DNA of 64,000 nt from Kiritimatiellia bacterium. Its GTDB lineage: Bacteria > Verrucomicrobiota > Kiritimatiellia > RFP12 > UBA1067. The position numbers and the translations under genes are program-made. The DNA is taken from the NCBI GenBank assembly GCA_017652705.1, contig JAGCAM010000079.1:11475-75474 (forward strand), written 5' to 3'. Below, piece by piece: positions 2,394-55,683 of the stretch; the first letter of the stretch is position 1; the number at the start of each line of letters is the position of its first letter. The notes below the pieces were generated by a model, which did no database searches, was not told the DNA's origin, and worked only from the letters and a program-made list of their open reading frames with translations.

Positions 2394-2402
2394 ATTATAC
2401 CA
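2394..2402 (-). promoter_or_regulatory. extended -10 box TGGTATAAT, 8 nt from the proS ATG (leaderless candidate)
   Basis: The reverse complement of attatacca is TGGTATAAT. The hexamer overlaps the TAA stop (2395-2397) of the upstream gene. Confidence 0.5.
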
Positions 2403-7690: not shown

Positions 7691-7699
7691 ATTATATCA
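7691..7699 (-). promoter_or_regulatory. extended -10 box TGATATAAT, 7 nt from the ATG at 7683 (leaderless candidate)
   Basis: The reverse complement of attatatca is TGATATAAT. Confidence 0.55.
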
Positions 7700-7991: not shown

Positions 7992-9929
7992 TCACTTCCC
8001 GGCTGCGGCCAATTCCAGCGCCTGGCGGTAGACGCGGATTTTCGCGACGATCTCGGGCCGCGTCCAATTGATTACGAACGACGGATAGTACTGCCCGGTC
8101 TTGGGCGGGAATATACGGTTGAATTCGGCAAGCGCGGCGTCAAGCCCGGCGGCCGCTTTTTCAAGATCGGCGATTGCCGCCGCAACCTTGCCGACGTCGC
8201 CGCTGGCGAGATATTCCGCCAGCGATTTCAGGCCGCGCTGGTGAAAGGTCATCGCGTCGAGATCGAGCGCCTCGAAACGCGCGCGCCCCGCCTCGGCTGC
8301 CGCCAGCCCGGCGCTCGCGGTTCCCGCGGCGGACGTCGCGAGCGCGTCTGCCGCTTCACGCATCCTCTTCGCGCCGAACCCGAAGTTGCCCACCAGTTCC
8401 GCGCCGCTCTCGCCGCCGCGTTCGGGCATGAACCGGTAGTCGAAATATATATCGTAGGGCAGATTGCAGAACTGCCACGCGCGCAGATACGCCGCGGCGT
8501 TCCCGCTCAGATAATCACGCCACGGGCCGGGATTCTCCGGATCGACCGCAGCGGCGAGACGGGCGGTCAGAGAATCCGGTGTGTGCCCGCCTTCCCACGC
8601 CAGCAGAGACATGGCGAGCATGTTCCAGTCCACCCCCTGCAGTTCGCCGCCTACATGCAGCGACATCCAGCAGGTGATGCCCCCGTCGATGTAGGCGTCG
8701 GCGTCGCCGATCAGCACCTGCGGCAGATAGGGGGTGTGCCCCCGGAAAAGTATCTTGTCGTTGTAGTACTCGAAAGTGTGCGCGTCGTCCACGCCTTCGA
8801 AGCGGCGCTGGTATTCCTTGAGCGCGCGGTGGTAGGTGCGGTTGTGTGCGCACGACGGATCGTTCAGCGCGTGGGCGTAGCAGCGCTCGCGCGGCGCGAA
8901 CAGAAGAAAGCACTCCTTCGCTGGCGCGAACAACTTCGACGGAAACATCGTGTCGTGATAGGCGATGACCGGCACGCGCAGCGACGAGCCGAGCTCCCGC
9001 ACCGCCTCCGCCTCGATATTCATCACCAGCGCGCTCTGGTCGGTGCCGGTGAAAGCGCGGCAGCGCGAACACATGCACCAGCCGCCGCCGGGCAAATCGT
9101 CAGCCCAGGCGTGTATCGCGTGGACCCCCCCGCCGACTGCCGGCTCGAGACGCTTCTTGAAATTGCGCTTCACTATGTCGCGCGTCTTCGGATTCGTCGC
9201 GCAGAAGTTCGAGTCCTTCATCCGCTTGCCGTTGAAATCCTCGGGCTGGAACATGCGGAAGAGTTCGGGTTCTTTGTCGAAAAGTTCTCGCGGCAGACAC
9301 GAGCTCATGCCGTGGCCGCCGGCCTCGGCCCTGAACCCGAGTTTTTTGAGCAGATCCATGCGCTCCGGAACGATGCGCGCGGAGTGCGCGCAGATCGAGT
9401 TGAACTTGAGCTTGGCGAGAAACGCGTACCACTCCTCGACCGTGTACGACACGCAGGCGCTCGACGCGAAAAGCCCGCGTCGTTCAAAACGCGGATTCAC
9501 CGTCTTCACCTCGTCTTTCACCGGCTTCATCCGCCGCGGCACCAGCTCCCCCTTTTCGCCCGGCGCGATAAAGGAGAAGCCGAGTTCTTCGGCGATGGTG
9601 TAGACGCCGTTGAGAACGCCTTTGCCGCACGCAGCGGCGACCGTCACACCGTCTTTGCAGGCACTCTTGACGAACCCGTCGTGGCGCACCGAGGAGACGT
9701 CGCATTGGCGCGGCGCCCCGAGCGACACGGATTCGCCTGCGCCGGCCGCCGTCCGCACCGACGCCTTGACCCCGGCGCGCCCGAGCAGCCGCGCGAGTTC
9801 GCCCGCGGCGTAGTTGGTGAGTTCGCCGCCGGTGGCGGTTATTTCGACCTTTTCAAGCGAGACGGCGTCAAAGGCAGACACCGCCCCCGCCGACAGGGCG
9901 GCGGCAAGGGCGACTGTGATTCTGTTCAT
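7992..9929 (-). CDS. secreted DUF4838-family protein (putative glycoside hydrolase)
   Basis: 645 aa with a signal peptide MNRITVALAAALSAGAVSA. It has WCMCSRC (CxCxxC) and the FNSIC/ATNP blocks shared with the other copies in this window. Confidence 0.8.
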   Translation of the reverse strand: MNRITVALAAALSAGAVSAFDAVSLEKVEITATGGELTNYAAGELARLLGRAGVKASVRTAAGAGESVSLGAPRQCDVSSVRHDGFVKSACKDGVTVAAACGKGVLNGVYTIAEELGFSFIAPGEKGELVPRRMKPVKDEVKTVNPRFERRGLFASSACVSYTVEEWYAFLAKLKFNSICAHSARIVPERMDLLKKLGFRAEAGGHGMSSCLPRELFDKEPELFRMFQPEDFNGKRMKDSNFCATNPKTRDIVKRNFKKRLEPAVGGGVHAIHAWADDLPGGGWCMCSRCRAFTGTDQSALVMNIEAEAVRELGSSLRVPVIAYHDTMFPSKLFAPAKECFLLFAPRERCYAHALNDPSCAHNRTYHRALKEYQRRFEGVDDAHTFEYYNDKILFRGHTPYLPQVLIGDADAYIDGGITCWMSLHVGGELQGVDWNMLAMSLLAWEGGHTPDSLTARLAAAVDPENPGPWRDYLSGNAAAYLRAWQFCNLPYDIYFDYRFMPERGGESGAELVGNFGFGAKRMREAADALATSAAGTASAGLAAAEAGRARFEALDLDAMTFHQRGLKSLAEYLASGDVGKVAAAIADLEKAAAGLDAALAEFNRIFPPKTGQYYPSFVINWTRPEIVAKIRVYRQALELAAAGK

Positions 9930-9951
9930 GTCTTATCTCCCTCAAACTGGT

Positions 9952-10575
9952 TCAGCGGCCGGAAACCCAGCCCGCGATGTCGGTCTCCGAAGCATCGGTG
10001 AGGTTTTTCGGGGTCTCGAAAGTCGCCCCCGGCGCCGACGGTTTCAGGTAATCCAGAGTTTTCCCGGCGCCGCTGCCGCCGCTCGTGAAGAACGGCACGA
10101 TTTTCTTTCCCTTCAAGTCGTGGGCCTCGAGAAAGGTGTTGACGACTGTCGGCGCGACGTACCACCATATCGGAAAACCGAGATAGACGACGTCGTAATC
10201 TGCGATGTCGGCGATTCTGGTTTTGACGGCCGGCCGCGACTTCTTGTCGTTCATCTCCACCGAAGATCGGCTCTGTTTGTTGTGCCAGTCGAGGTCTTCC
10301 CTGTTGTAGGGCTTCTCGGGGGTGATTTCGACAAGTCTGCCCCCGGTCGCTTTGGCGACGAGCGCGGCTTTTGCCTTGGTGGTGCCGGTGGCGGAAAAAT
10401 AGGCGACGAGTGTTTTCATTTTCTTTCCTTTCACTTCTTTGCCGGCGGCCGGAGCGCCTCCCGCCGCCGGCGGTTCTTTTTCAGCCCCGTTTACGTCGTT
10501 CCCGCCTGAACCGCCGCAGCCTGCCAGCGCCGCGGCCGACACCGCGAAAACAAATTCTTTTCTGCTTAGTTTCAT
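9952..10575 (-). CDS. flavodoxin-family lipoprotein
   Basis: 207 aa with lipobox ALAGCGG, a Gly/Ala/Pro linker, then KTLVAYFSATGTTK and YLGFPIWW. An SD GGAGGAG lies upstream. Confidence 0.8.
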   Translation of the reverse strand: MKLSRKEFVFAVSAAALAGCGGSGGNDVNGAEKEPPAAGGAPAAGKEVKGKKMKTLVAYFSATGTTKAKAALVAKATGGRLVEITPEKPYNREDLDWHNKQSRSSVEMNDKKSRPAVKTRIADIADYDVVYLGFPIWWYVAPTVVNTFLEAHDLKGKKIVPFFTSGGSGAGKTLDYLKPSAPGATFETPKNLTDASETDIAGWVSGR

Positions 10576-10604
10576 CTGACTTCTCCTCCGGTTTTACTGA
10601 GTGT

Positions 10605-10613
10605 ATTATATCA
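10605..10613 (-). promoter_or_regulatory. extended -10 box TGATATAAT for the flavodoxin gene (leader about 20 nt, with SD)
   Basis: The reverse complement of attatatca is TGATATAAT. Confidence 0.55.
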
Positions 10614-11004
10614 TTGTCTGCGGCCTGAAATCAACACCAGTCGGCTTTCGGCAAGGAAAAACCCGAGGATCACCGTCCAGTACACGGTAAGCCCGGTATA
10701 GGCGCAGACCTCGTCCCTCCGCTCCCCGACGAGGACGACGAGAAGCGGGTTCAGGACCTTGCGGATCGGCTCGATGAAGCCCCTGAACGCCTTCATCGCC
10801 TCCGCCCATGCCGAGCGCAAACAGCATCGTGACGCGCGAAGCCAGATGCTGCCAGAACGCGGGCTCCGGTCCGCGCAGGATATCAAGGCAGAAAAGCCGC
10901 CCCGCCGGATAGCTGTGGGGCCGGGGAAAGACCGACGGAACCACGCCCTGCCCCATTCCAGAAATCCGGCCCCCGGCCATGTCGCGGCTCCGGGCTTTCG
11001 ACAT
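10606..11004 (-). pseudogene. frameshifted remnant of a membrane acyltransferase (acyltransferase_3/DUF1624-like)
   Basis: Two overlapping frames are involved. One carries RLFCLDILRG..MLFALGMGG (the R-x3-LD-x-LRG N-terminal signature). The other carries hydrophobic LNPLLVVLVG...YWTVILGFFL. No intact ORF exists. Confidence 0.35.
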
Positions 11005-11081
11005 TTACCCGGTAGTTTTCTGCATGGTATTCCTTTTCGCTTGCAAACATTCCAGGTGTCATGCCGGTTTCCCGGAGCTGT

Positions 11082-11834
11082 CTATGAACGTTTCTTCCCG
11101 CCGACGGCGGAAAGAAGCATTGCGGTCAGCCAGCCGGGCAGCGGGCGGTCGTGGTTCAGCATTTTTTCGATGTAATCCTTGAAATCGAACCGCAGCTCCC
11201 GGAAATCCAGCTCGCCGGCCCGGTCGTCGTAGATGCAGTATGTCGTCACCATGTCGTTGCGCGGGTAGCCGACCGAACCGAGATTCACCAGATACCGCCA
11301 CCCGTCGCGGATTTTGAACGATCGCGGCTTCCAGCGCTTGATCACCCCTTTGGGGCTGCGCAGAAAAATCTCTGCGTGGTGGAGATGCCCGACGAACAGC
11401 AGTCTTTCAGGGGTGGCGTTGAACGAAAGGGATGCATCGTAGAGATCCATGATGTAGTTAAAATCGGCGGGGCTGGTGAAGTCGCCGTGCGCACAGGCGA
11501 AATCTCCGTTGGACCAGCTGACCGGGCGTTTGCGCAGCCAGGCGACATCCGGGGCAGAAAGGAGCTTACGGTCGAGGCGGTCGATGTCGTAGTTGGGGTT
11601 GACGCGCATCTCCACGGTCTGGCTCCGGGCCACGCAAACTTCGTCGTGGTTGCCGAGCAGCGCCACCGAAGCGCACTTGCGCAGGGCCGCCACGCACGCC
11701 GGAGCGTCATAGCCGTAACCGGTCGCATCGCCGCAGAAAATCCACTTGTCCACGCCACGCGCGGATCCGTCGGCAAGCACGGTTTCAAGCGCCCGGAAAT
11801 TTCCGTGAACGTCTGAAATGACGCCGTATTTCAC
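11082..11834 (-). CDS. metallophosphoesterase (calcineurin-like, YfcE/MJ0936-type)
   Basis: 250 aa with DVHGN, GDATGYG, GNHD and GHLH motifs. It has a GTG start in a GTGA overlap with the clpC stop. Confidence 0.85.
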   Translation of the reverse strand: MKYGVISDVHGNFRALETVLADGSARGVDKWIFCGDATGYGYDAPACVAALRKCASVALLGNHDEVCVARSQTVEMRVNPNYDIDRLDRKLLSAPDVAWLRKRPVSWSNGDFACAHGDFTSPADFNYIMDLYDASLSFNATPERLLFVGHLHHAEIFLRSPKGVIKRWKPRSFKIRDGWRYLVNLGSVGYPRNDMVTTYCIYDDRAGELDFRELRFDFKDYIEKMLNHDRPLPGWLTAMLLSAVGGKKRS

Positions 11835-14302
11835 TTAGCCTTCCCCGCCCGGCGGAAAACCAGGGCGGCTCCGTCTTTGGCGAGTCTGGCGCGCATCCGC
11901 GCCCCGGCTTTGCCGGAGAGCACAAGATCGGCGAGAGGATCTTCCACGAAATCCTGAACCACCCTGCGCAGCGGGCGGGCGCCGAGCGCAGGATCGTAGC
12001 CTTTTTCAATCAGAAAATCCGCCGCCTTGTCGTCGAGAGTAAACGTGATGTGCGCGTTTTTAAGCCGCGCCTGGAGTCCGGCGAGTTCAAGTTCGAGTAT
12101 GCGCCGCAGATCGGCCTTTTCGAGTTTTTTGAAGACGACTGTCTCGTCGAACCGGTTGAGGAGCTCCGGTCGGAAAGCCCGCTTCGCCTCGCCGAGCATT
12201 TTTTCTTTCAGCACGTCGTAGCTCGTCTCGGCGGTGTCTTTGGCGAAACCGAGCGTGTGGCCTTCGCGGGCGAAATCGAACCCGAGGTTGGCGGTGCAGA
12301 TCACGATGGTGTTTCTGAAGTCGATCATCCGGCCCTGGCCGTCGGTGAGGCGGCCTTCGTCGAGAATCTGCAGCAGCATGTTGCAGACGTCGGAATTAGC
12401 CTTCTCGAATTCGTCGAACAGCACGACCGAATAGGGCCGGCGGCGCACTTTCTCGGTGAGCTGGCCGCCTTCGTCGTAGCCGACGTAACCCGGGGGGGCG
12501 CCGACGAGGCGCGAGGAGGAGTATTTTTCCTGGAATTCAGACATGTCCAGCGCGATCAGCGCCTTGGAGTCGCCGTAAACGCGTTCGGCGAGCATCTTGG
12601 CGAGATGGGTTTTGCCGACGCCGGTCGGTCCGAGAAAGAGAAATGATCCGATCGGGCGCTTCGGGTCGGACATCAGCGCGCGGCTGCGGCGGAGCGCCCT
12701 GGCGATGGCGTTAACCGCCGGTGTCTGCCCGACCACCACTTCACCGAGGGCTTTTTCCATGCCGAGCAGTTTTTCGGCGGTGGTGGCGCACATCTTCTCG
12801 ACGGGCACGCCGCTCATCGAAGAAACGGTTTCTGCGACGTCCTTCTCGCCGATCTCGATGACCTCTTCGGCGTGGGTCTCCTTCCATTTGGCGAGCGCCG
12901 CTTCGAATTCTTCGCAGGCGCTGCGGATGGCGTCGCGGTACTGCGCCGCGGAATCGAAGTCGCCTTTCGCGACGACCTGTTCCTTACGGCCGCGCAAGGT
13001 GTCGATGCGGGCCTGCATTTCGGTGAGTTTCTTCGGACGGGCGCTTGCGCCGGCTCGCAGTCTGGCGCCGGTTTCATCCACCGCGTCGATCGCCTTGTCG
13101 GGCAGCTGGCGCGCCGGCAGGTAGCGCGCGGTGAGCTCCACCGCCGCGCGGATCGCCTGCGGCGTGTAGGCGACGGAATGGTATTCGGAATACTTGGGGG
13201 CGATGCCTTCGATGATGCCGACGGCTTCGACGACGGTCGGTTCGTCGACCTGCACCGACTGGAACCGGCGTTCCAGCGCGGCGTCGCGCTCTATGGACTT
13301 GTGGTATTCTTTGAGGGTGGTGGCGCCGACGCACTGCAGTTCGCCGCGAGCGAGCGCGGGTTTGAGGATGTTCGCCGCGTCCATGGCGCCCTCGGCGCCG
13401 CCGGCGCCGACCATGGTGTGTATTTCGTCGAGGAAAAGGATGATGTTGGCGCTGCGCTTCGTTTCGTCGATTATCTTCTTGAGCCGCTCTTCGAACTGGC
13501 CGCGGTACTGGGTGCCGGCCACGACGCGGGCCATGTCGAGCGCCACCACGCGCTTGTTCTGCATCTTTTCGGGCACCTCGCCGCGATGCACCGCCTGGGC
13601 GAGACCCTCGACGACGGCGGTTTTGCCGACGCCGGCCTCGCCGATCAGCACGGCGTTGTTTTTGGTGCGGCGCGAGAGAATCTGAATTATGCGTCTGAGT
13701 TCTTTCTCCCTGCCGATCACGGGATCGAGTTTCCCCTGCCTGGCGAGTTCGGTGAGGTCGCGCCCGTAGGCGTTGACCGTCGGCGTTTTCTGGGCCTTGC
13801 CGTTCGCCCCGGGGCGGGCGTCGCGCACATCTTCATCGGCCTCGCGGCGCTCCGGCGTTTCGTCGCCGCGGCGGTCGCCGCCCTGGCTGCCGGCGGCGAT
13901 GAACTTGTCGGCGGTGACACCGGCGTTGAACAGCAGCTGCGCGGCGGCGTTGTCCCCTTCACGGAGCATCGCGAGCACGAGATGCGCGGTGCCCACCGGT
14001 CTGCCGTCGCCGGCGTCCAGCGCGGCCATGTCGAGTATTTTTCTCGTGCGCGCCGTGAGCGGCAGCTGCCCCCGCTGCAGAATGCCCTCGGCGCCGCCGG
14101 AAATCATCGACTTCGCCGACTCGGCGAGATCTTCGAGCGCCAGCCCCAGCGTCACCAGCCGTCGGCAGGCTTCGCACTGCGGTATCGCGATTATGGAAAG
14201 AAAGATGTGCTCCGCGCCGATATGGTCGTGGCCGAACTGACGGGCGCAGCTGGACGACGCGTTCAACGCGTCGACGGCGTGCTTTGTGAAAACCACCTTC
14301 AC
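11831..14302 (-). CDS. clpC: ATP-dependent Clp protease ATP-binding subunit ClpC
   Basis: 823 aa with Clp_N repeats, Walker A GEAGVGKT (D1) and GPTGVGKT (D2), and a short UVR-like linker ([12 protein letters not shown]). It has a GTG start in a GTGA overlap with the upstream stop. Confidence 0.92.
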
Positions 14303-15183
14303 AGGAACTTATCCTCCGCGCGCTCGTTCAGCACCACGTCTTCGAACCGGCGGTTCATCTCGTCGGCGCGCTCGGCGTCGATTTTATCCCGGTCTTCGGA
14401 TTCGAGTTTATCCTCCGAACCGCTCAGATCAACCGCTGCGAGCATCCTCTCGATTTCGTCGCCGGTGATGCCGTCGAGCATCTCTTCGGCGGCGGCGATT
14501 CTGAGCGGGGAGAGCAGATCGAAATATTCACCCGGCGACAGCAGCCGGCAGTTCTTCATGACCGCCAGCGCGCGGCAGAGCGAATCGCCCAGCACCCGCG
14601 GCATCTCCTCGAAAAGCCGCACCCGGGCGTTGCGTTCCTCCCGGAGCAGATCTTCGACGACGCGTTTCGCCCGGTCTTCCGGACCTGAATAGCGCAGCGA
14701 GAAAACGTGACCGGCGTCGTTCACCCCGTCGGCGTCTACCCCGGCGAGTTCCATCTTCAAAGCCCTCGCGGCGCGTTTTACCGCATCCAGCTCGCCGATG
14801 AGATGAAGCGCCTCGAGATGCAGCCGCCCGCCGATCAGGTACGCTGGATCCACCCCGGCTAGGGAATAGTCGCGGTATTCAGGCCTTTTCTCCTCTTTAG
14901 AAGCCCGCGCGGCCTTCTCCAGATCGGAAACCATGTCCTGAAAAGCGTTCATGATCGCTCCGATGATCTGGGGAGGCGCTTCACCCCCGTCCACCGGCGC
15001 CGAGATTTCGGTGACAGACATCGACACTTCACCGCCGGCACCCTTTACCTTTCTGGTGCGTTGGCTCTTCTTCTGCCGGCGCTGCCGCTCCGCCGCGGCG
15101 CAGGCGCGGCAGACGTAAAGCTCGTTGTCGTCGCTGCCAATCGCCGTCTCGGCGTCGGATTTATGACACAGTTCGCATTTCAT
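14299..15183 (-). CDS. zinc-ribbon protein with a McsB C-terminal-like region; candidate ClpC adaptor
   Basis: 294 aa with an N-terminal CxxC-x18-CxxC (MKCELCHKSD...YVCRACAAAE), as in McsA. By eye, the C-terminal third (REERNARVRL...CRALAVMKNCRLLSPGEYFDLLSPLRIA...EDRDKIDAERA) aligns with the McsB dimerisation domain. I see no NEEDH or CPTNxGT kinase motifs. Confidence 0.75.
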   Translation of the reverse strand: MKCELCHKSDAETAIGSDDNELYVCRACAAAERQRRQKKSQRTRKVKGAGGEVSMSVTEISAPVDGGEAPPQIIGAIMNAFQDMVSDLEKAARASKEEKRPEYRDYSLAGVDPAYLIGGRLHLEALHLIGELDAVKRAARALKMELAGVDADGVNDAGHVFSLRYSGPEDRAKRVVEDLLREERNARVRLFEEMPRVLGDSLCRALAVMKNCRLLSPGEYFDLLSPLRIAAAEEMLDGITGDEIERMLAAVDLSGSEDKLESEDRDKIDAERADEMNRRFEDVVLNERAEDKFL

Positions 15184-15191
15184 GGATGTGT

Positions 15192-15200
15192 ATTATATCA
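15192..15200 (-). promoter_or_regulatory. extended -10 box TGATATAAT, 8 nt from the ATG at 15183 (leaderless candidate)
   Basis: The reverse complement of attatatca is TGATATAAT. Confidence 0.55.
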
Positions 15201-15235
15201 AATATTGCATCCGCTTGCCTTCCCGCGCCGCCACC

Positions 15236-16732
15236 TCACGCCATCGGGTCTGGCGAAAACTCACCCTGCATCATGTCAGGCTCGGGCTCAGACGATTTAA
15301 AGTTCTCCACCCCTTCGCCGCGGTCCGGCTCGCGGTCGAGAAACCTCACGTATTCGCGCAGAAAGGTCAATTTCACTTCGCCGGTTTCACCGTTTCTGTT
15401 CTTGGCGATGTCAACATACGCGAGGGTGGCGTCGCCGCATTCGGGATCGTTGGCGTTGCGCGCCGGGCGGCGGAGCAGAAAGACGACGTCGGCGTCCTGC
15501 TCGATCGCGCCGGAATCGCGCAGATCGGAGAGTTTGGGTTTTTCGAACTTGTCTCCGCGCTGCACGGTGGCTCGGGAAAGCTGCGAAAGCACGATCACCG
15601 GCACCTGCAGCTCCTTGGCCATCGCCTTGATCTGCTGCGAAATCATCGCGACCTCGATCTGCCGCCCCTGCCTCGCGCCTTCGCGGCAGCAGCACAGCTG
15701 CAGATAGTCGATGACGATTAGCTCGATGCCGAACCGTTTCTTCATCCGGCGGGCCCGTGCGCGCAGATCCATCACGTCAAGACCCGCGGCGTCATCCACG
15801 TAAATGGGCGACGACTTCAAAACGCCCAGCGCCCCCATGAGCTGTTCGGTCAGCCGCTGTTTCTCGCTCCGCGCCACCAGTTCGCGGTTCAACCGCCACA
15901 TGTTGATGCGCGCTCGCCCGGCCAGCATCCGCTTCGTGAGCTGCACCACGGGCATCTCCAGCGAAAAAACGGCCACCGGGTGTTTTTTGCCGCCGTCGTA
16001 CTTGACCGGCATGTCGTTCATCGCCATGCCCGTCGCGCAGCTCTCGGCGATGTTCATCGCCAGCGACGTCTTGCCCATCGACGGACGCGCCGCAATCACG
16101 ATCATTTCGCCGGGCTTCAACCCCTGAAGAACTTCGTCGAGATACTTGTAGCCGGTTGAAAGCCCTTCCATCAGTTTGCCGCCGGACTCGAACAGCCTGT
16201 CGATGCGGTTGAAACTTTCCTGCACCGCGTCCGGCCACGGCATGGTTTCACCGGCGGAACCGCCGATTTCGAGAAAGGACTTCTCCGCCTCGCCCAGCAC
16301 GACCTGCGGGTCGGGGTACTCGCCTTCGTCATAGCACTTTTTGACCACGTCGGTGGCCCGCTCGATCATCACGCGGCGCAGATATTTGGCCCGCAGTATG
16401 CCGATGTAATGCTCCGCGTGCGCCGTCGTCGGCACCTGGTCGATAAGCGACTGGATGTAACCGACCCCGCCGATCGCCTCGAGCCGGCCGTCTCCGCGCA
16501 ACTCTTCGATAAGCACAAGCGCGTCGATCGGCTTTGCTTCGACGCTCATCTTCAGAATGGCGGAATATATGGTCTGGTTCGCCGGATTGAAAAACGCTTC
16601 GGGCACTATCCCGCGCGTGCGGCATTCATCAAGCACGTGTTCATCGCCGTGGGTGGTGGCGTCAAGAAGGATGGACCCTAGAACCGCCCTTTCGGCGGCG
16701 GGGTTGTTCGGTGGTGCTTTCAAATCTTCCAT
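15236..16732 (-). CDS. dnaB: replicative DNA helicase DnaB
   Basis: The start is reset to MEDLKAPPNNPAAERAVLGSILLD (ATG at 16732), behind a TGGTATAAT box. It has Walker A RPSMGKTS and RecA-like C-terminal motifs. Confidence 0.92.
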   Translation of the reverse strand: MEDLKAPPNNPAAERAVLGSILLDATTHGDEHVLDECRTRGIVPEAFFNPANQTIYSAILKMSVEAKPIDALVLIEELRGDGRLEAIGGVGYIQSLIDQVPTTAHAEHYIGILRAKYLRRVMIERATDVVKKCYDEGEYPDPQVVLGEAEKSFLEIGGSAGETMPWPDAVQESFNRIDRLFESGGKLMEGLSTGYKYLDEVLQGLKPGEMIVIAARPSMGKTSLAMNIAESCATGMAMNDMPVKYDGGKKHPVAVFSLEMPVVQLTKRMLAGRARINMWRLNRELVARSEKQRLTEQLMGALGVLKSSPIYVDDAAGLDVMDLRARARRMKKRFGIELIVIDYLQLCCCREGARQGRQIEVAMISQQIKAMAKELQVPVIVLSQLSRATVQRGDKFEKPKLSDLRDSGAIEQDADVVFLLRRPARNANDPECGDATLAYVDIAKNRNGETGEVKLTFLREYVRFLDREPDRGEGVENFKSSEPEPDMMQGEFSPDPMA

Positions 16733-16739
16733 GCCGCAG

Positions 16740-16748
16740 ATTATACCA
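16740..16748 (-). promoter_or_regulatory. extended -10 box TGGTATAAT, 7 nt from the dnaB ATG (leaderless candidate)
   Basis: The reverse complement of attatacca is TGGTATAAT. Confidence 0.55.
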
Positions 16749-16887
16749 GAAAAAAACCTTCTGCGCCGAATGCGTTGTCTACACATGTCTACCGCTGTAA
16801 ACAGCTTGTGAACAACCGGTCGCCGGGGAGGGAGCGGATGGCAATTGGCGGATTATTCACCACGCCGATTGTCTCGTCCCGGTGAAA

Positions 16888-17679
16888 TCAGTAGACGACC
16901 GTGCAACTGACGAGATCGTGGTCGCTCAAATCGCCGGCGGGCATGAAACGCGCGTCTTTAAAGTCCATGCCTTTAATCATGATGTTGTCCAGCGGAGATT
17001 TCGGATTGTTCGAGGGGTAAGTCGGCGTGGCGTCGCCGTTGACCAGTTTGTAGCCGGCTTTCATGAATACGTCGTATTCTTCCCAGAAGCCGATGTTGAA
17101 GTCGCCGGAGATTATCACCCGCGGCTCGTTGCGGAAATCGTCGATCAGTTTCTTCATCTGGAGTTTGCGGTCGTCTTCGTGGCCGGTCTTGAAGGTGGTC
17201 CAGTCAAGGTGCGTCTGCACCGCCCAGAACGGTTCGGCGCCGGACGGCTTGAGTTTAATCGCGAGGTAGTACACCCGCTGGTCGTGTTGCGGATACTCGA
17301 CGATTTTGGTCTCGGCGATTTCGAAACCGTTCAGGCAGAATGCGTTCCACTGATAATCATGGCCCGGCCCTTTGACGCATTTGCTGTAGCGGCCGAAAAC
17401 CGCCGCTTCGGACGAGATTCCGCCGCAGGTTGTGAACGCCTCGGAGAATTCGCAGACGCCGAGCACCTGCGCACCGACCTTGTCGAGGAAATCCCTGTAC
17501 GCCCGTCCGCGTTCGCCTGCCTGTTCCGGCGGAATGGTGGAGGCTCTGGATCGTCCCCATGCAAAATGGCCGATGTTCCAGCTCGCGTAGGTGAATTCAC
17601 CGGATTTCGGAACGCTCGAACAGCCAGCCGCCGCAAGGCACATGGCGGCGAAACCGATTTTGGCGAATGCAGGCTTCAT
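16888..17679 (-). CDS. endonuclease/exonuclease/phosphatase (EEP) family lipoprotein
   Basis: 263 aa with lipobox AAAGCSS, SWNIGHF near the N-terminus and SDHDLV near the C-terminus. It has an ATGA overlap with the upstream gene. Confidence 0.8.
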   Translation of the reverse strand: MKPAFAKIGFAAMCLAAAGCSSVPKSGEFTYASWNIGHFAWGRSRASTIPPEQAGERGRAYRDFLDKVGAQVLGVCEFSEAFTTCGGISSEAAVFGRYSKCVKGPGHDYQWNAFCLNGFEIAETKIVEYPQHDQRVYYLAIKLKPSGAEPFWAVQTHLDWTTFKTGHEDDRKLQMKKLIDDFRNEPRVIISGDFNIGFWEEYDVFMKAGYKLVNGDATPTYPSNNPKSPLDNIMIKGMDFKDARFMPAGDLSDHDLVSCTVVY

Positions 17680-36691: not shown

Positions 36692-36700
36692 ATTATATCA
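36692..36700 (-). promoter_or_regulatory. extended -10 box TGATATAAT, 6 nt from the ATG at 36685 (leaderless candidate)
   Basis: The reverse complement of attatatca is TGATATAAT. Confidence 0.55.
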
Positions 36701-55674: not shown

Positions 55675-55683
55675 ATTCTACCA
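55675..55683 (-). promoter_or_regulatory. extended -10 box TGGTAGAAT, 7 nt from the ATG at 55667 (leaderless candidate)
   Basis: The reverse complement of attctacca is TGGTAGAAT. Confidence 0.5.

Follow-up and report, generated by a model that had tools for sequence, protein, structure and literature searches.

A predicted kinase-less McsA-McsB fusion encoded upstream of clpC in gut and rumen Kiritimatiellae

The two-protein arginine kinase McsA/McsB tags proteins for the ClpC protease, and its genes normally lie upstream of clpC. We analyzed a 64,000-nucleotide (nt) stretch of DNA from a Kiritimatiellia bacterium (contig JAGCAM010000079.1, positions 11,475 to 75,474; hereafter, the window). 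By sequence and open reading frame (ORF) reading, three co-directional genes on its minus strand encode a protein of 294 amino acids (aa), ClpC, and a metallophosphoesterase. An initial annotation, made from the letters alone, had described these genes as chained by GTGA overlaps behind a promoter-like box, TGATATAAT, and we found each element on the minus strand where it had been placed (Table 1). The first gene almost certainly encodes a chimera, in which the N-terminal half of McsA is joined to the C-terminal third of the kinase fold of McsB and to the McsB dimerization domain. An identical protein from a Kiritimatiellae metagenome-assembled genome (MAG) is present in NCBI, where it is annotated as hypothetical.

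Table 1. Features of the clpC operon and of its first protein product (positions in the window)
Feature	Position	Strand	Basis or remark
Extended -10 box TGATATAAT	15200..15192	minus	Ends 8 nt before the ATG of the 294-aa gene
Kinase-less McsA-McsB fusion gene, 294 aa	15183..14299	minus	ORF list; NCBI 'hypothetical protein J6T01_04860', Kiritimatiellae bacterium
Zinc ribbon (McsA Z1), residues 1-31 (C3, C6, C25, C28)	15091..15183	minus	hhalign, conservation
Lys/Arg-rich linker (RQRRQKKSQRTRKVKG...), residues 32-70	14974..15090	minus	Predicted largely disordered from ~43
McsA-derived helix (PPxIIxAxxNAxxxxV), residues 71-96	14896..14973	minus	Helix 72-96 in model; aligned to McsA proteins
McsB kinase-fold remnant, β9-β11 and α8, residues 108-190	14614..14862	minus	hhalign against canonical McsB
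McsB dimerization domain (PF27454 McsB_C), residues 191-288	14320..14613	minus	Precomputed Pfam record, hhalign
GTGA overlap (ctGTGAagg), fusion gene TGA / clpC GTG	14299..14302	minus	Sequence reading
clpC, 823 aa, GTG start	14302..11831	minus	Pfam matches; closest PDB entries are B. subtilis and S. aureus ClpC
ClpC N-terminal domain, remodeled pArg1 pocket	13868..14302	minus	Alignment to solved ClpC N-domains
GTGA overlap (aaGTGAaa), clpC stop / metallophosphoesterase GTG	11831..11834	minus	Sequence reading
Metallophosphoesterase, 250 aa, GTG start	11834..11082	minus	Pfam/NCBIfam: Metallophos_2; ApaH/PrpE/YfcE-like, calcineurin-type

The N terminus of the 294-aa protein carries a C3-x2-C6-x18-C25-x2-C28 zinc motif. 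Among 36 cluster representatives of the family, C6, C25, and C28 never vary, and conservation of C3 is 90% or higher. With hhalign, residues 1-95 aligned to positions 1-95 of the 194-position McsA profile (probability 99.7%, E = 1.4e-25). Using phmmer, we also matched the protein to stand-alone McsA proteins of ~190 aa, which paired with residues 1-89 (P0233, E = 2.1e-9) and 1-102 (P0262, E = 4.0e-7) of the query. The helix at residues 71-96, a typical element of PVC McsA, sits in stand-alone McsA between the two zinc domains, Z1 and Z2; it could be aligned both with P0233 and with McsA from three related loci (L090, L088, and L086). Within residues 32-70 (14974-15090), a conserved, strongly basic disordered stretch (RQRRQKKSQRTRK) precedes a 'GVSMSVT' motif that is conserved too; stand-alone McsA proteins from related lineages of the Planctomycetes-Verrucomicrobiota-Chlamydiae (PVC) group contain the two as well.

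The remainder of the protein resembles McsB. In an hhalign comparison that used the family profile, residues 108-288 aligned to positions 167-357 of the canonical McsB profile (probability 99.9%, E = 3.9e-33). The NCBIfam protein-arginine-kinase model NF002194 matched residues 121-279 over model positions 172-339 of 345 only (E = 5.9e-14), with a score of 51.9 bits that falls far under the 385-bit cut-off. When phmmer was run against the PDB, McsB chains were the only matches (E = 2e-5, B. subtilis residues ~180-317). An AlphaFold2 model, built with 36 family representatives in the alignment, had a mean predicted local distance difference test score of 90.2, with means of 50-53 for residues 41-70. 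When this model was compared with the PDB by Foldseek, McsB structures took all of the first ten places (E = 5e-8 to 4e-6); the eleventh match had an E value of 0.36. McsB_C (PF27454) is the sole Pfam domain on record for 777 homologs. A direct Pfam scan of the 294-aa protein returned no significant match; a sub-threshold match to MtrC was discarded as spurious. Conservation within the protein is highest in the dimerization domain, which keeps all invariants of the canonical domain (E251, R255, D268, R272, E287, R296, R342, and A343 in P0202 numbering), the equivalents being E183, R187, D200, R204, E219, R228, R272, and A273.

In characterized systems, McsB consists of a kinase domain (residues ~18-258) and a dimerization domain, and McsA consists of Z1, Z2 with its loop L3, and a coiled coil (PMC11046695; PMC8370763). 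Z2-L3 docks on the McsB kinase domain and activates it, while Z1, the coiled coil, and the dimerization domain drive higher-order oligomer assembly (PMC11046695). The parts lost from the 294-aa protein are Z2-L3 and the coiled coil of McsA and residues ~1-175 of McsB, the stretch that bears NEEDH, the catalytic Cys, and CPxNxGTG. The McsA alignment stops at about residue 95, ahead of Z2, and the protein has two CxxC motifs instead of the four found in McsA and in intact McsA-McsB fusions. Neither a UVR motif nor a coiled coil was matched in it; the motif is present in the McsA proteins of the neighboring clade. The phosphagen-kinase catalytic domain (PF00217, ATP-gua_Ptrans) gave no match to the protein even at E ≤ 1, and NEEDH and CPxNxGT are absent both from it and from ~45 family representatives, while canonical and fused controls contain them.

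The remnant of the kinase fold has itself diverged. Invariants of canonical McsB are replaced (R176 by L116, R207 by A147, and E212 by D152; P0202 numbering), and hhalign column mapping places SLRY where McsB has its QISN motif, with loss of Q222, S224, and N225. Because the invariants of the kinase remnant are all replaced while those of the dimerization domain are all preserved, the 294-aa protein should be unable to act as a kinase, and we regard it with high confidence as non-catalytic.

Much of what the initial annotation had claimed for this protein held. The CxxC-x18-CxxC motif and its likeness to McsA are borne out by the cysteines and by the hhalign result, the four McsB-like peptides it quoted are present (residues 158-165, 181-187, 203-230, and 263-273), and the structure search returned McsB as the only significant match. 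Its failure to find NEEDH or CPTNxGT extends to the six-frame translation of the window, and its suggestion of a single-chain, non-catalytic McsA/McsB derivative agrees with profile searches that detected no kinase core. The homology of the C terminus to McsB also stands, but its extent had been underestimated: it covers ~180 rather than ~150 residues, as the final three kinase-domain strands belong to it together with the dimerization domain.

We found 247 matches in an exhaustive HMMER search of 1.8 billion cluster representatives. The family comprises ~45 full-length clusters at 50% identity, and 777 homologs are on record. To sample gene order, we scanned one genome per GTDB species with a 12-sequence alignment, which yielded 80 loci; nearly every one comes from a Kiritimatiellae MAG of gut or rumen origin. 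As the annotation of a ClpC partner would predict, clpC lies immediately downstream in 76 of these, each from a different species; in two others the contig ends within the locus. The gene is under purifying selection in ~80 gut and rumen Kiritimatiellae species: an intact ORF of 270-330 aa is maintained at 42-75% identity, and the median pairwise ratio of nonsynonymous to synonymous substitution rates (dN/dS) among 78 orthologs is ~0.32 overall, 0.22 in the zinc ribbon, and 0.26 in the dimerization domain. Two divergent members are uncoupled from clpC (L078, 7001-7885; L067, 7001-7861), and the gene next to the L078 member encodes an Mrp/ApbC-like P-loop ATPase. As no clpC follows these two genes, the family can exist apart from it. 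Six contigs with the Kiritimatiellae-type operon (L030, L036, L051, L071, L073, and L077) are filed under Muribaculaceae, Barnesiella, Faecalibacterium, Alistipes, or a Methanomethylophilaceae archaeon; these odd taxon labels probably reflect contamination during the binning of MAGs.

The 247 matches fall into six classes. Alongside the ~45 full-length relatives of 270-330 aa, which share the zinc ribbon and are devoid of kinase motifs, we found proteins of ~280 aa that lack the zinc ribbon and carry an internally deleted kinase domain, full-length McsB-like proteins of 341-364 aa whose motifs are degenerate, canonical McsB, which contains NEEDH and CPSNxGTG, McsA-McsB fusions of 515-550 aa, and stand-alone McsA of ~190 aa. 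The large fusions contain four CxxC motifs and an intact kinase, and their N termini are near-identical to that of the window protein. In other Kiritimatiellae, an intact 523-aa fusion is encoded directly upstream of clpC (J6U40_00235; GCA_002309585.1), and two further intact fusions likewise adjoin clpC. The truncated gene holds the exact position of the intact kinase in sister lineages, which points to an orthologous replacement of the intact fused kinase by the truncated gene rather than to an addition.

The dead-kinase forms of mcsB that encode full-length (341-364 aa) or internally deleted (277-286 aa) proteins are preceded by a separate gene for full McsA, with Z1, Z2, and UVR, and followed by clpC. 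These forms lie on related contigs of PVC type, the internally deleted ones at L086, L087, L093, and L094 and the full-length ones at L088, L089, L090, and L095. Some dead-kinase relatives are labeled 'protein-arginine kinase' by public pipelines, an annotation that may mislead. An unbootstrapped neighbor-joining tree, built from the C-terminal region that all of them share, groups the three dead forms into one clade nested among active kinases, and these forms have in common HLEGLxLIGEL, where canonical McsB has HLPGL. As the simplest history of this series, we infer that the kinase would have died first, that a two-gene stage would have followed, and that in the lineage of the window protein a single in-frame deletion, reaching from a point shortly ahead of Z2 to one shortly ahead of strand β9, would have produced the fusion. 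Because this deletion swapped both partners of the Z2-kinase contact for a peptide bond, the last role of that contact may have been to tether Z1 to the dimerization domain.

We next compared the ClpC proteins. By its Pfam matches, the window ClpC combines a Clp_N domain at the N terminus with two AAA+ modules; it also has a short M-domain and a ClpP-binding LGF loop. Alignment to the ClpC of B. subtilis and of S. aureus extends over the full length (E = 2e-237), with LGF paired to VGF and FDSAAQYRD, in the M-domain with its UVR-like motif, paired to FEKAASLRD. Of the two phospho-arginine (pArg) pockets of ClpC, pArg2 is defined by E32 and pArg1 by E106; T7 belongs to pArg1, R9 is nearby, and pArg1 weighs most in the activation of ClpC by pArg (PMC12583610). 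In the window ClpC, the pArg1 segments read FTKHA instead of FTERA (R9 to His8) and GTAH instead of GTEH (E106 to Ala106), and the pArg2 glutamate is kept (GAEH, with Glu31 as the equivalent of E32).

These differences recur across the family. At R9, the 76 ClpCs linked to the family carry Asn (50), His (24), or Asp (2) and never Arg (0/76), and Arg is also lost from all six ClpCs that accompany dead two-gene forms, so that the residue is missing from 82/82 ClpCs paired with dead-kinase forms; the ClpCs of intact kinases keep it (3/3). E106 is lost from 69/76 family-linked ClpCs, which have Val (50), Ala (7), Ser (7), Thr (3), Ile (1), or Cys (1), with Glu in seven, and from four of the six ClpCs that accompany dead two-gene forms. 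T31, which is Ala30 in the window, is Thr in only 1/76 family-linked ClpCs and is lost in one of those six. E32, by comparison, is Glu in 76/76 and 6/6. The three ClpCs paired with intact fused kinases keep T7, R9, T31, E32, E106, and H107, and thus loss of the kinase goes with remodeling of the pArg1 pocket in ClpC. We also considered that the window ClpC might be naturally de-repressed, as it has non-canonical equivalents of the resting-state anchors D356, E426, and E435. This idea was dropped, as the ClpCs of intact-kinase PVC lineages deviate there too and these positions show no correlation with kinase state.

The fusion gene is predicted to have a leaderless or nearly leaderless transcript (a leader of at most 2 nt). 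No Shine-Dalgarno sequence is present between TGATATAAT and the ATG of the 294-aa gene, a gene that lies 52 nt past the dnaB stop codon. In 50/79 homologous loci, an extended -10 box of the form TGnTAnnnT stops 8-11 nt short of the start codon, and this recurrent spacing gives the prediction good comparative support. The two downstream genes have Shine-Dalgarno-like purine runs within the preceding coding sequence, among them GGAGGA, ~10 nt 5' of the overlap between the fusion gene and clpC, and an NTGA stop/start overlap joins these two genes in 65/79 loci. A consensus promoter scan, which also demands a -35 hexamer, passed over TGATATAAT; a consensus terminator scan found no minus-strand terminator in 10500-17200, and Rfam matched no RNA family in 10000-17500.

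Extended -10 boxes (TGnTAnAAT) also lie 6-8 nt before the ATG of five other long minus-strand ORFs in the window, namely dnaB and ORFs of 1415, 465, 394, and 582 aa; the boxes are at 16740-16748, 55675-55683, 36692-36700, 7691-7699, and 2394-2402 (minus strand). As at least five other long ORFs in the window share the layout, it appears to be a trait of the organism rather than of this operon. The operon had initially been singled out as leaderless; the spacing of the -10 box supports that description, but the arrangement is common in the genome and not peculiar to this operon.

The gene directly upstream of the fusion gene, dnaB, occupies that place in only ~8/80 related loci. Its longest ORF has 516 codons (15236-16786, minus strand), and its real start is likely the ATG at 16732, as indicated by the promoter at 16748..16740 and by the public gene call (498 aa). 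Around the operon lie genes for DUF4838 proteins and glycoside hydrolases, as well as a flavodoxin-like gene with its own sigma-70-type promoter (10634..10605); the positions concerned are 7992-9929 and 9952-10575 (minus strand), and the same is seen in the upstream part of L081. These surroundings fit a polysaccharide-degrading gut organism.

The metallophosphoesterase at the end of the operon belongs to the calcineurin-like fold family, and its closest solved structure is 3rqz (E = 2e-23). With tblastn, even at E ≤ 1, we found no homolog of it in any of the 80 related loci, and even the nearest relatives have different genes 3' of clpC. We therefore rejected it as a conserved member of the operon. 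By its sequence and distribution, it is a lineage-specific passenger, co-transcribed but outside the conserved system. At L086, another gene of the Metallophos family (304 aa; 9527-10441, minus strand of the locus) is oriented toward clpC; it has no tblastn similarity to the window phosphoesterase, and its presence is probably a coincidence.

We favor, with a probability of about 0.6, the reading that ClpC has in the 294-aa protein an adaptor or regulator that is non-catalytic and independent of pArg. Ancestry and gene order make it probable that the protein is a functional ClpC partner; that its action is independent of pArg we consider slightly better than an even bet. The arrangement suggests that the ClpC protease is controlled here without phospho-arginine tags. 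In the mechanism we propose, the protein would be produced from a leaderless transcript, with its translation coupled to that of clpC. It would dimerize through its dimerization domain and carry two zinc-ribbon arms on basic, flexible linkers. The dimer would bind ClpC and serve the ClpC(P) unfoldase-protease as a stoichiometric, pArg-independent adaptor or regulator, such that direct protein-protein recognition would take over from a 'write a pArg tag' mechanism and the covalent fusion would substitute for the former Z2-kinase contact. More tentatively, and with less than even confidence, we envisage that gut and rumen Kiritimatiellae, together with the PVC lineages that have a dead McsB, gave up pArg tagging. 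The kinase would have become a 'pseudokinase' adaptor, Z1 and the dimerization domain would be the minimal McsAB unit that contacts ClpC, and the pArg1 pocket would have been remodeled in step. If this is true, a kinase-independent McsAB-ClpC interface, hidden in Gram-positive models, would emerge.

Several points weigh against an adaptor or regulator that acts without pArg. The proposed binding of ClpC by the 294-aa protein rests on gene order and ancestry, and two of the 80 loci, L067 and L078, have no adjacent clpC. The adaptor function of B. subtilis McsB is reported to need kinase activity (PMC5506225), and a kinase-less adaptor would therefore need an unprecedented binding mode. In the linked ClpCs, pArg2 looks intact, with the E32 equivalent in 76/76 and the T81 and R83 equivalents conserved, so recognition of phospho-ligands by ClpC may still be possible. 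The same may hold to some degree for the 294-aa protein, since the pArg receptor pocket of McsB is partly kept in it (D269, R272, and A273, corresponding to D338, R341, and A342). The six-frame translation in which no NEEDH/CPxNxGT kinase motif or motif of a protein tyrosine phosphatase of low molecular weight (LMW-PTP) was found covers the 64-kb window, the rest of the genome being unsearched. The intact-kinase side of the ClpC co-variation comprises three PVC lineages, and the neighbor-joining tree, being unbootstrapped, is to be treated as rough.

The retained pocket residues raise the prospect that the protein is a non-catalytic reader or scaffold: a kinase encoded elsewhere would write pArg marks, and a pocket formed by R272, D269, and the backbone of S216/P217 would bind them and bridge them to ClpC. 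Such a role would suit both the conserved pArg2 residues of the 76 linked ClpCs and the cryo-electron microscopy structure of McsB, in which R341 and S285 alone contact pR333. We nonetheless find it quite unlikely. The truncated gene sits precisely where sister lineages have the intact kinase, which argues for replacement, the pArg1 site of ClpC is degenerate, and the window contains no kinase or LMW-PTP motif. Moreover, the R337 equivalent is I268 and is hydrophobic across the whole family, and the R341 equivalent is Arg in 27/36 representatives; internally deleted relatives mostly have Leu or Ile there. Alternatively, the protein, instead of being an activator and adaptor as MecA is, may preserve only the inhibitory ClpC-McsB complex and act as a brake, holding or capping ClpC until stress occurs or until it is itself degraded. 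McsB is found in complex with ClpC in unstressed B. subtilis, so a kinase-independent contact exists (PMC5506225), and co-production through translational coupling would suit a stoichiometric inhibitor. In addition, R9 and E106 mutations make S. aureus ClpC partly auto-active (PMC12583610), and a ClpC of this kind might need another form of restraint. As the deviation of D356, E426, and E435 in intact-kinase PVC ClpCs weakens the case for an auto-active ClpC, we judge a brake unlikely, though not implausible.

The zinc ribbon could instead be a redox switch in which the Cys4 site senses oxidative or thiol stress and the release of zinc alters how active ClpC is or which substrates it takes. 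A redox-sensing role has been ascribed to McsA (PMC5506225), the four cysteines are essentially invariant, the ribbon is the most constrained segment of the protein, and the organisms, judging from the sources of their genomes, are strict gut anaerobes. A purely structural zinc site predicts equally conserved cysteines, however, and a 2024 structural study favors McsA as an activator that is probably no oxidative-stress sensor (PMC11046695); we consider a switch improbable. The initial annotation had speculated that the phosphoesterase could regulate phospho-dependent targeting; it might then be an eraser of pArg or of another phospho-mark. The GTGA overlap with the clpC stop and the lack of a promoter of its own invite this idea, which failed the comparative analysis: the gene is absent from all 80 related loci, what follows clpC varies among the nearest relatives, the enzyme is ApaH/PrpE/YfcE-like and unrelated to the LMW-PTP pArg phosphatase YwlE with its CxGNxCRS P-loop, and the operon has no kinase to oppose. 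We regard an eraser as highly improbable. Least credible is a functionless mcsAB remnant kept only for the clpC promoter and translational coupling. Large catalytic deletions are typical of decay, and clpC does rely on the upstream promoter and the overlapping stop/start, but the reading frame has stayed intact at 42-75% identity in ~80 species, dN/dS is ~0.3 with synonymous sites near saturation, the zinc ligands and dimerization-domain residues are invariant, and the fold is predicted with high confidence. Given the widespread linkage to clpC and the low dN/dS, a decaying relic can effectively be excluded.

The McsB_C Pfam family already tags these proteins; full-text literature searches turned up no account of McsB derivatives that lack the kinase, nor of McsAB from Kiritimatiellae. 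How McsB activates ClpC has been stated to be unsettled (PMC5506225), as has the purpose of McsAB oligomerization (PMC11046695). The window protein amounts to a natural domain dissection, in which Z2-L3 and the kinase core are deleted and Z1 and the dimerization domain are retained under selection, linked to clpC. As the B. subtilis paradigm ties the adaptor role of McsB to kinase activity, this should be moderately surprising for the Clp-protease field. The compact 294-aa protein, together with the graded series of intact fusions, dead full-length forms, internally deleted forms, and minimal fusions, offers a means to probe non-catalytic effects of McsAB on ClpC. The series also makes McsB-like genes in PVC genomes unreliable evidence for arginine phosphorylation.

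Compared with McsA and McsB of Bacillus subtilis, Geobacillus, and Staphylococcus (6FH1, 6TV6, 8WTB, and 8GQD), the window protein is homologous over McsA ~1-95 and McsB from ~170 to the end, and it has the same place upstream of clpC, the same CxxC-x18-CxxC motif, and the same dimerization-domain residues. It differs from the Gram-positive proteins in being a single chain without Z2-L3, the coiled-coil/UVR region, two thirds of the kinase domain, or the catalytic and ATP-binding residues, in its incomplete pArg receptor pocket, which has lost the R337 equivalent, and in a locus with dnaB upstream and no ctsR. The intact Kiritimatiellae and PVC fusions of 515-550 aa (P0207/P0271, P0211, P0242, and P0251), from the same class, share with it MKCELCH...ELYVCxxCA, the single chain, and the position upstream of clpC. 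Unlike the window protein, they keep Z2, NEEDH, and CPSNxGTG, and their ClpC partners keep R9 and E106. The dead-kinase McsB proteins with a separate McsA belong to the same clade as the window protein, have HLEGLxLIGEL and no NEEDH, and are encoded upstream of clpC, with ClpC partners that lack R9; they are still specified by two genes, with Z2 and UVR in McsA and the Z2-binding segments in McsB. The window protein thus resembles either an intact fusion or an mcsA and dead-mcsB pair after an in-frame deletion from before Z2 to before β9.

Non-enzymatic partners of ClpC are known. The MecA and YpbH adaptors provide an analogy for the mode we propose, docking on the ClpC N-/M-domain for assembly and delivery, and they have no sequence or fold relationship to the window protein. 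MecA docks via both ClpC pArg pockets (PMC12583610). Mycobacterial ClpC2, a stand-alone paralog of the ClpC N-domain, is likewise a non-catalytic fragment of the ClpC/pArg machinery that acts as a regulator; it is not homologous to the window protein, derives from ClpC rather than from the kinase, and binds pArg (PMC13345244). The 294-aa protein lacks four features that define McsB and two that define McsA, yet by its sequence it is unambiguously derived from both.

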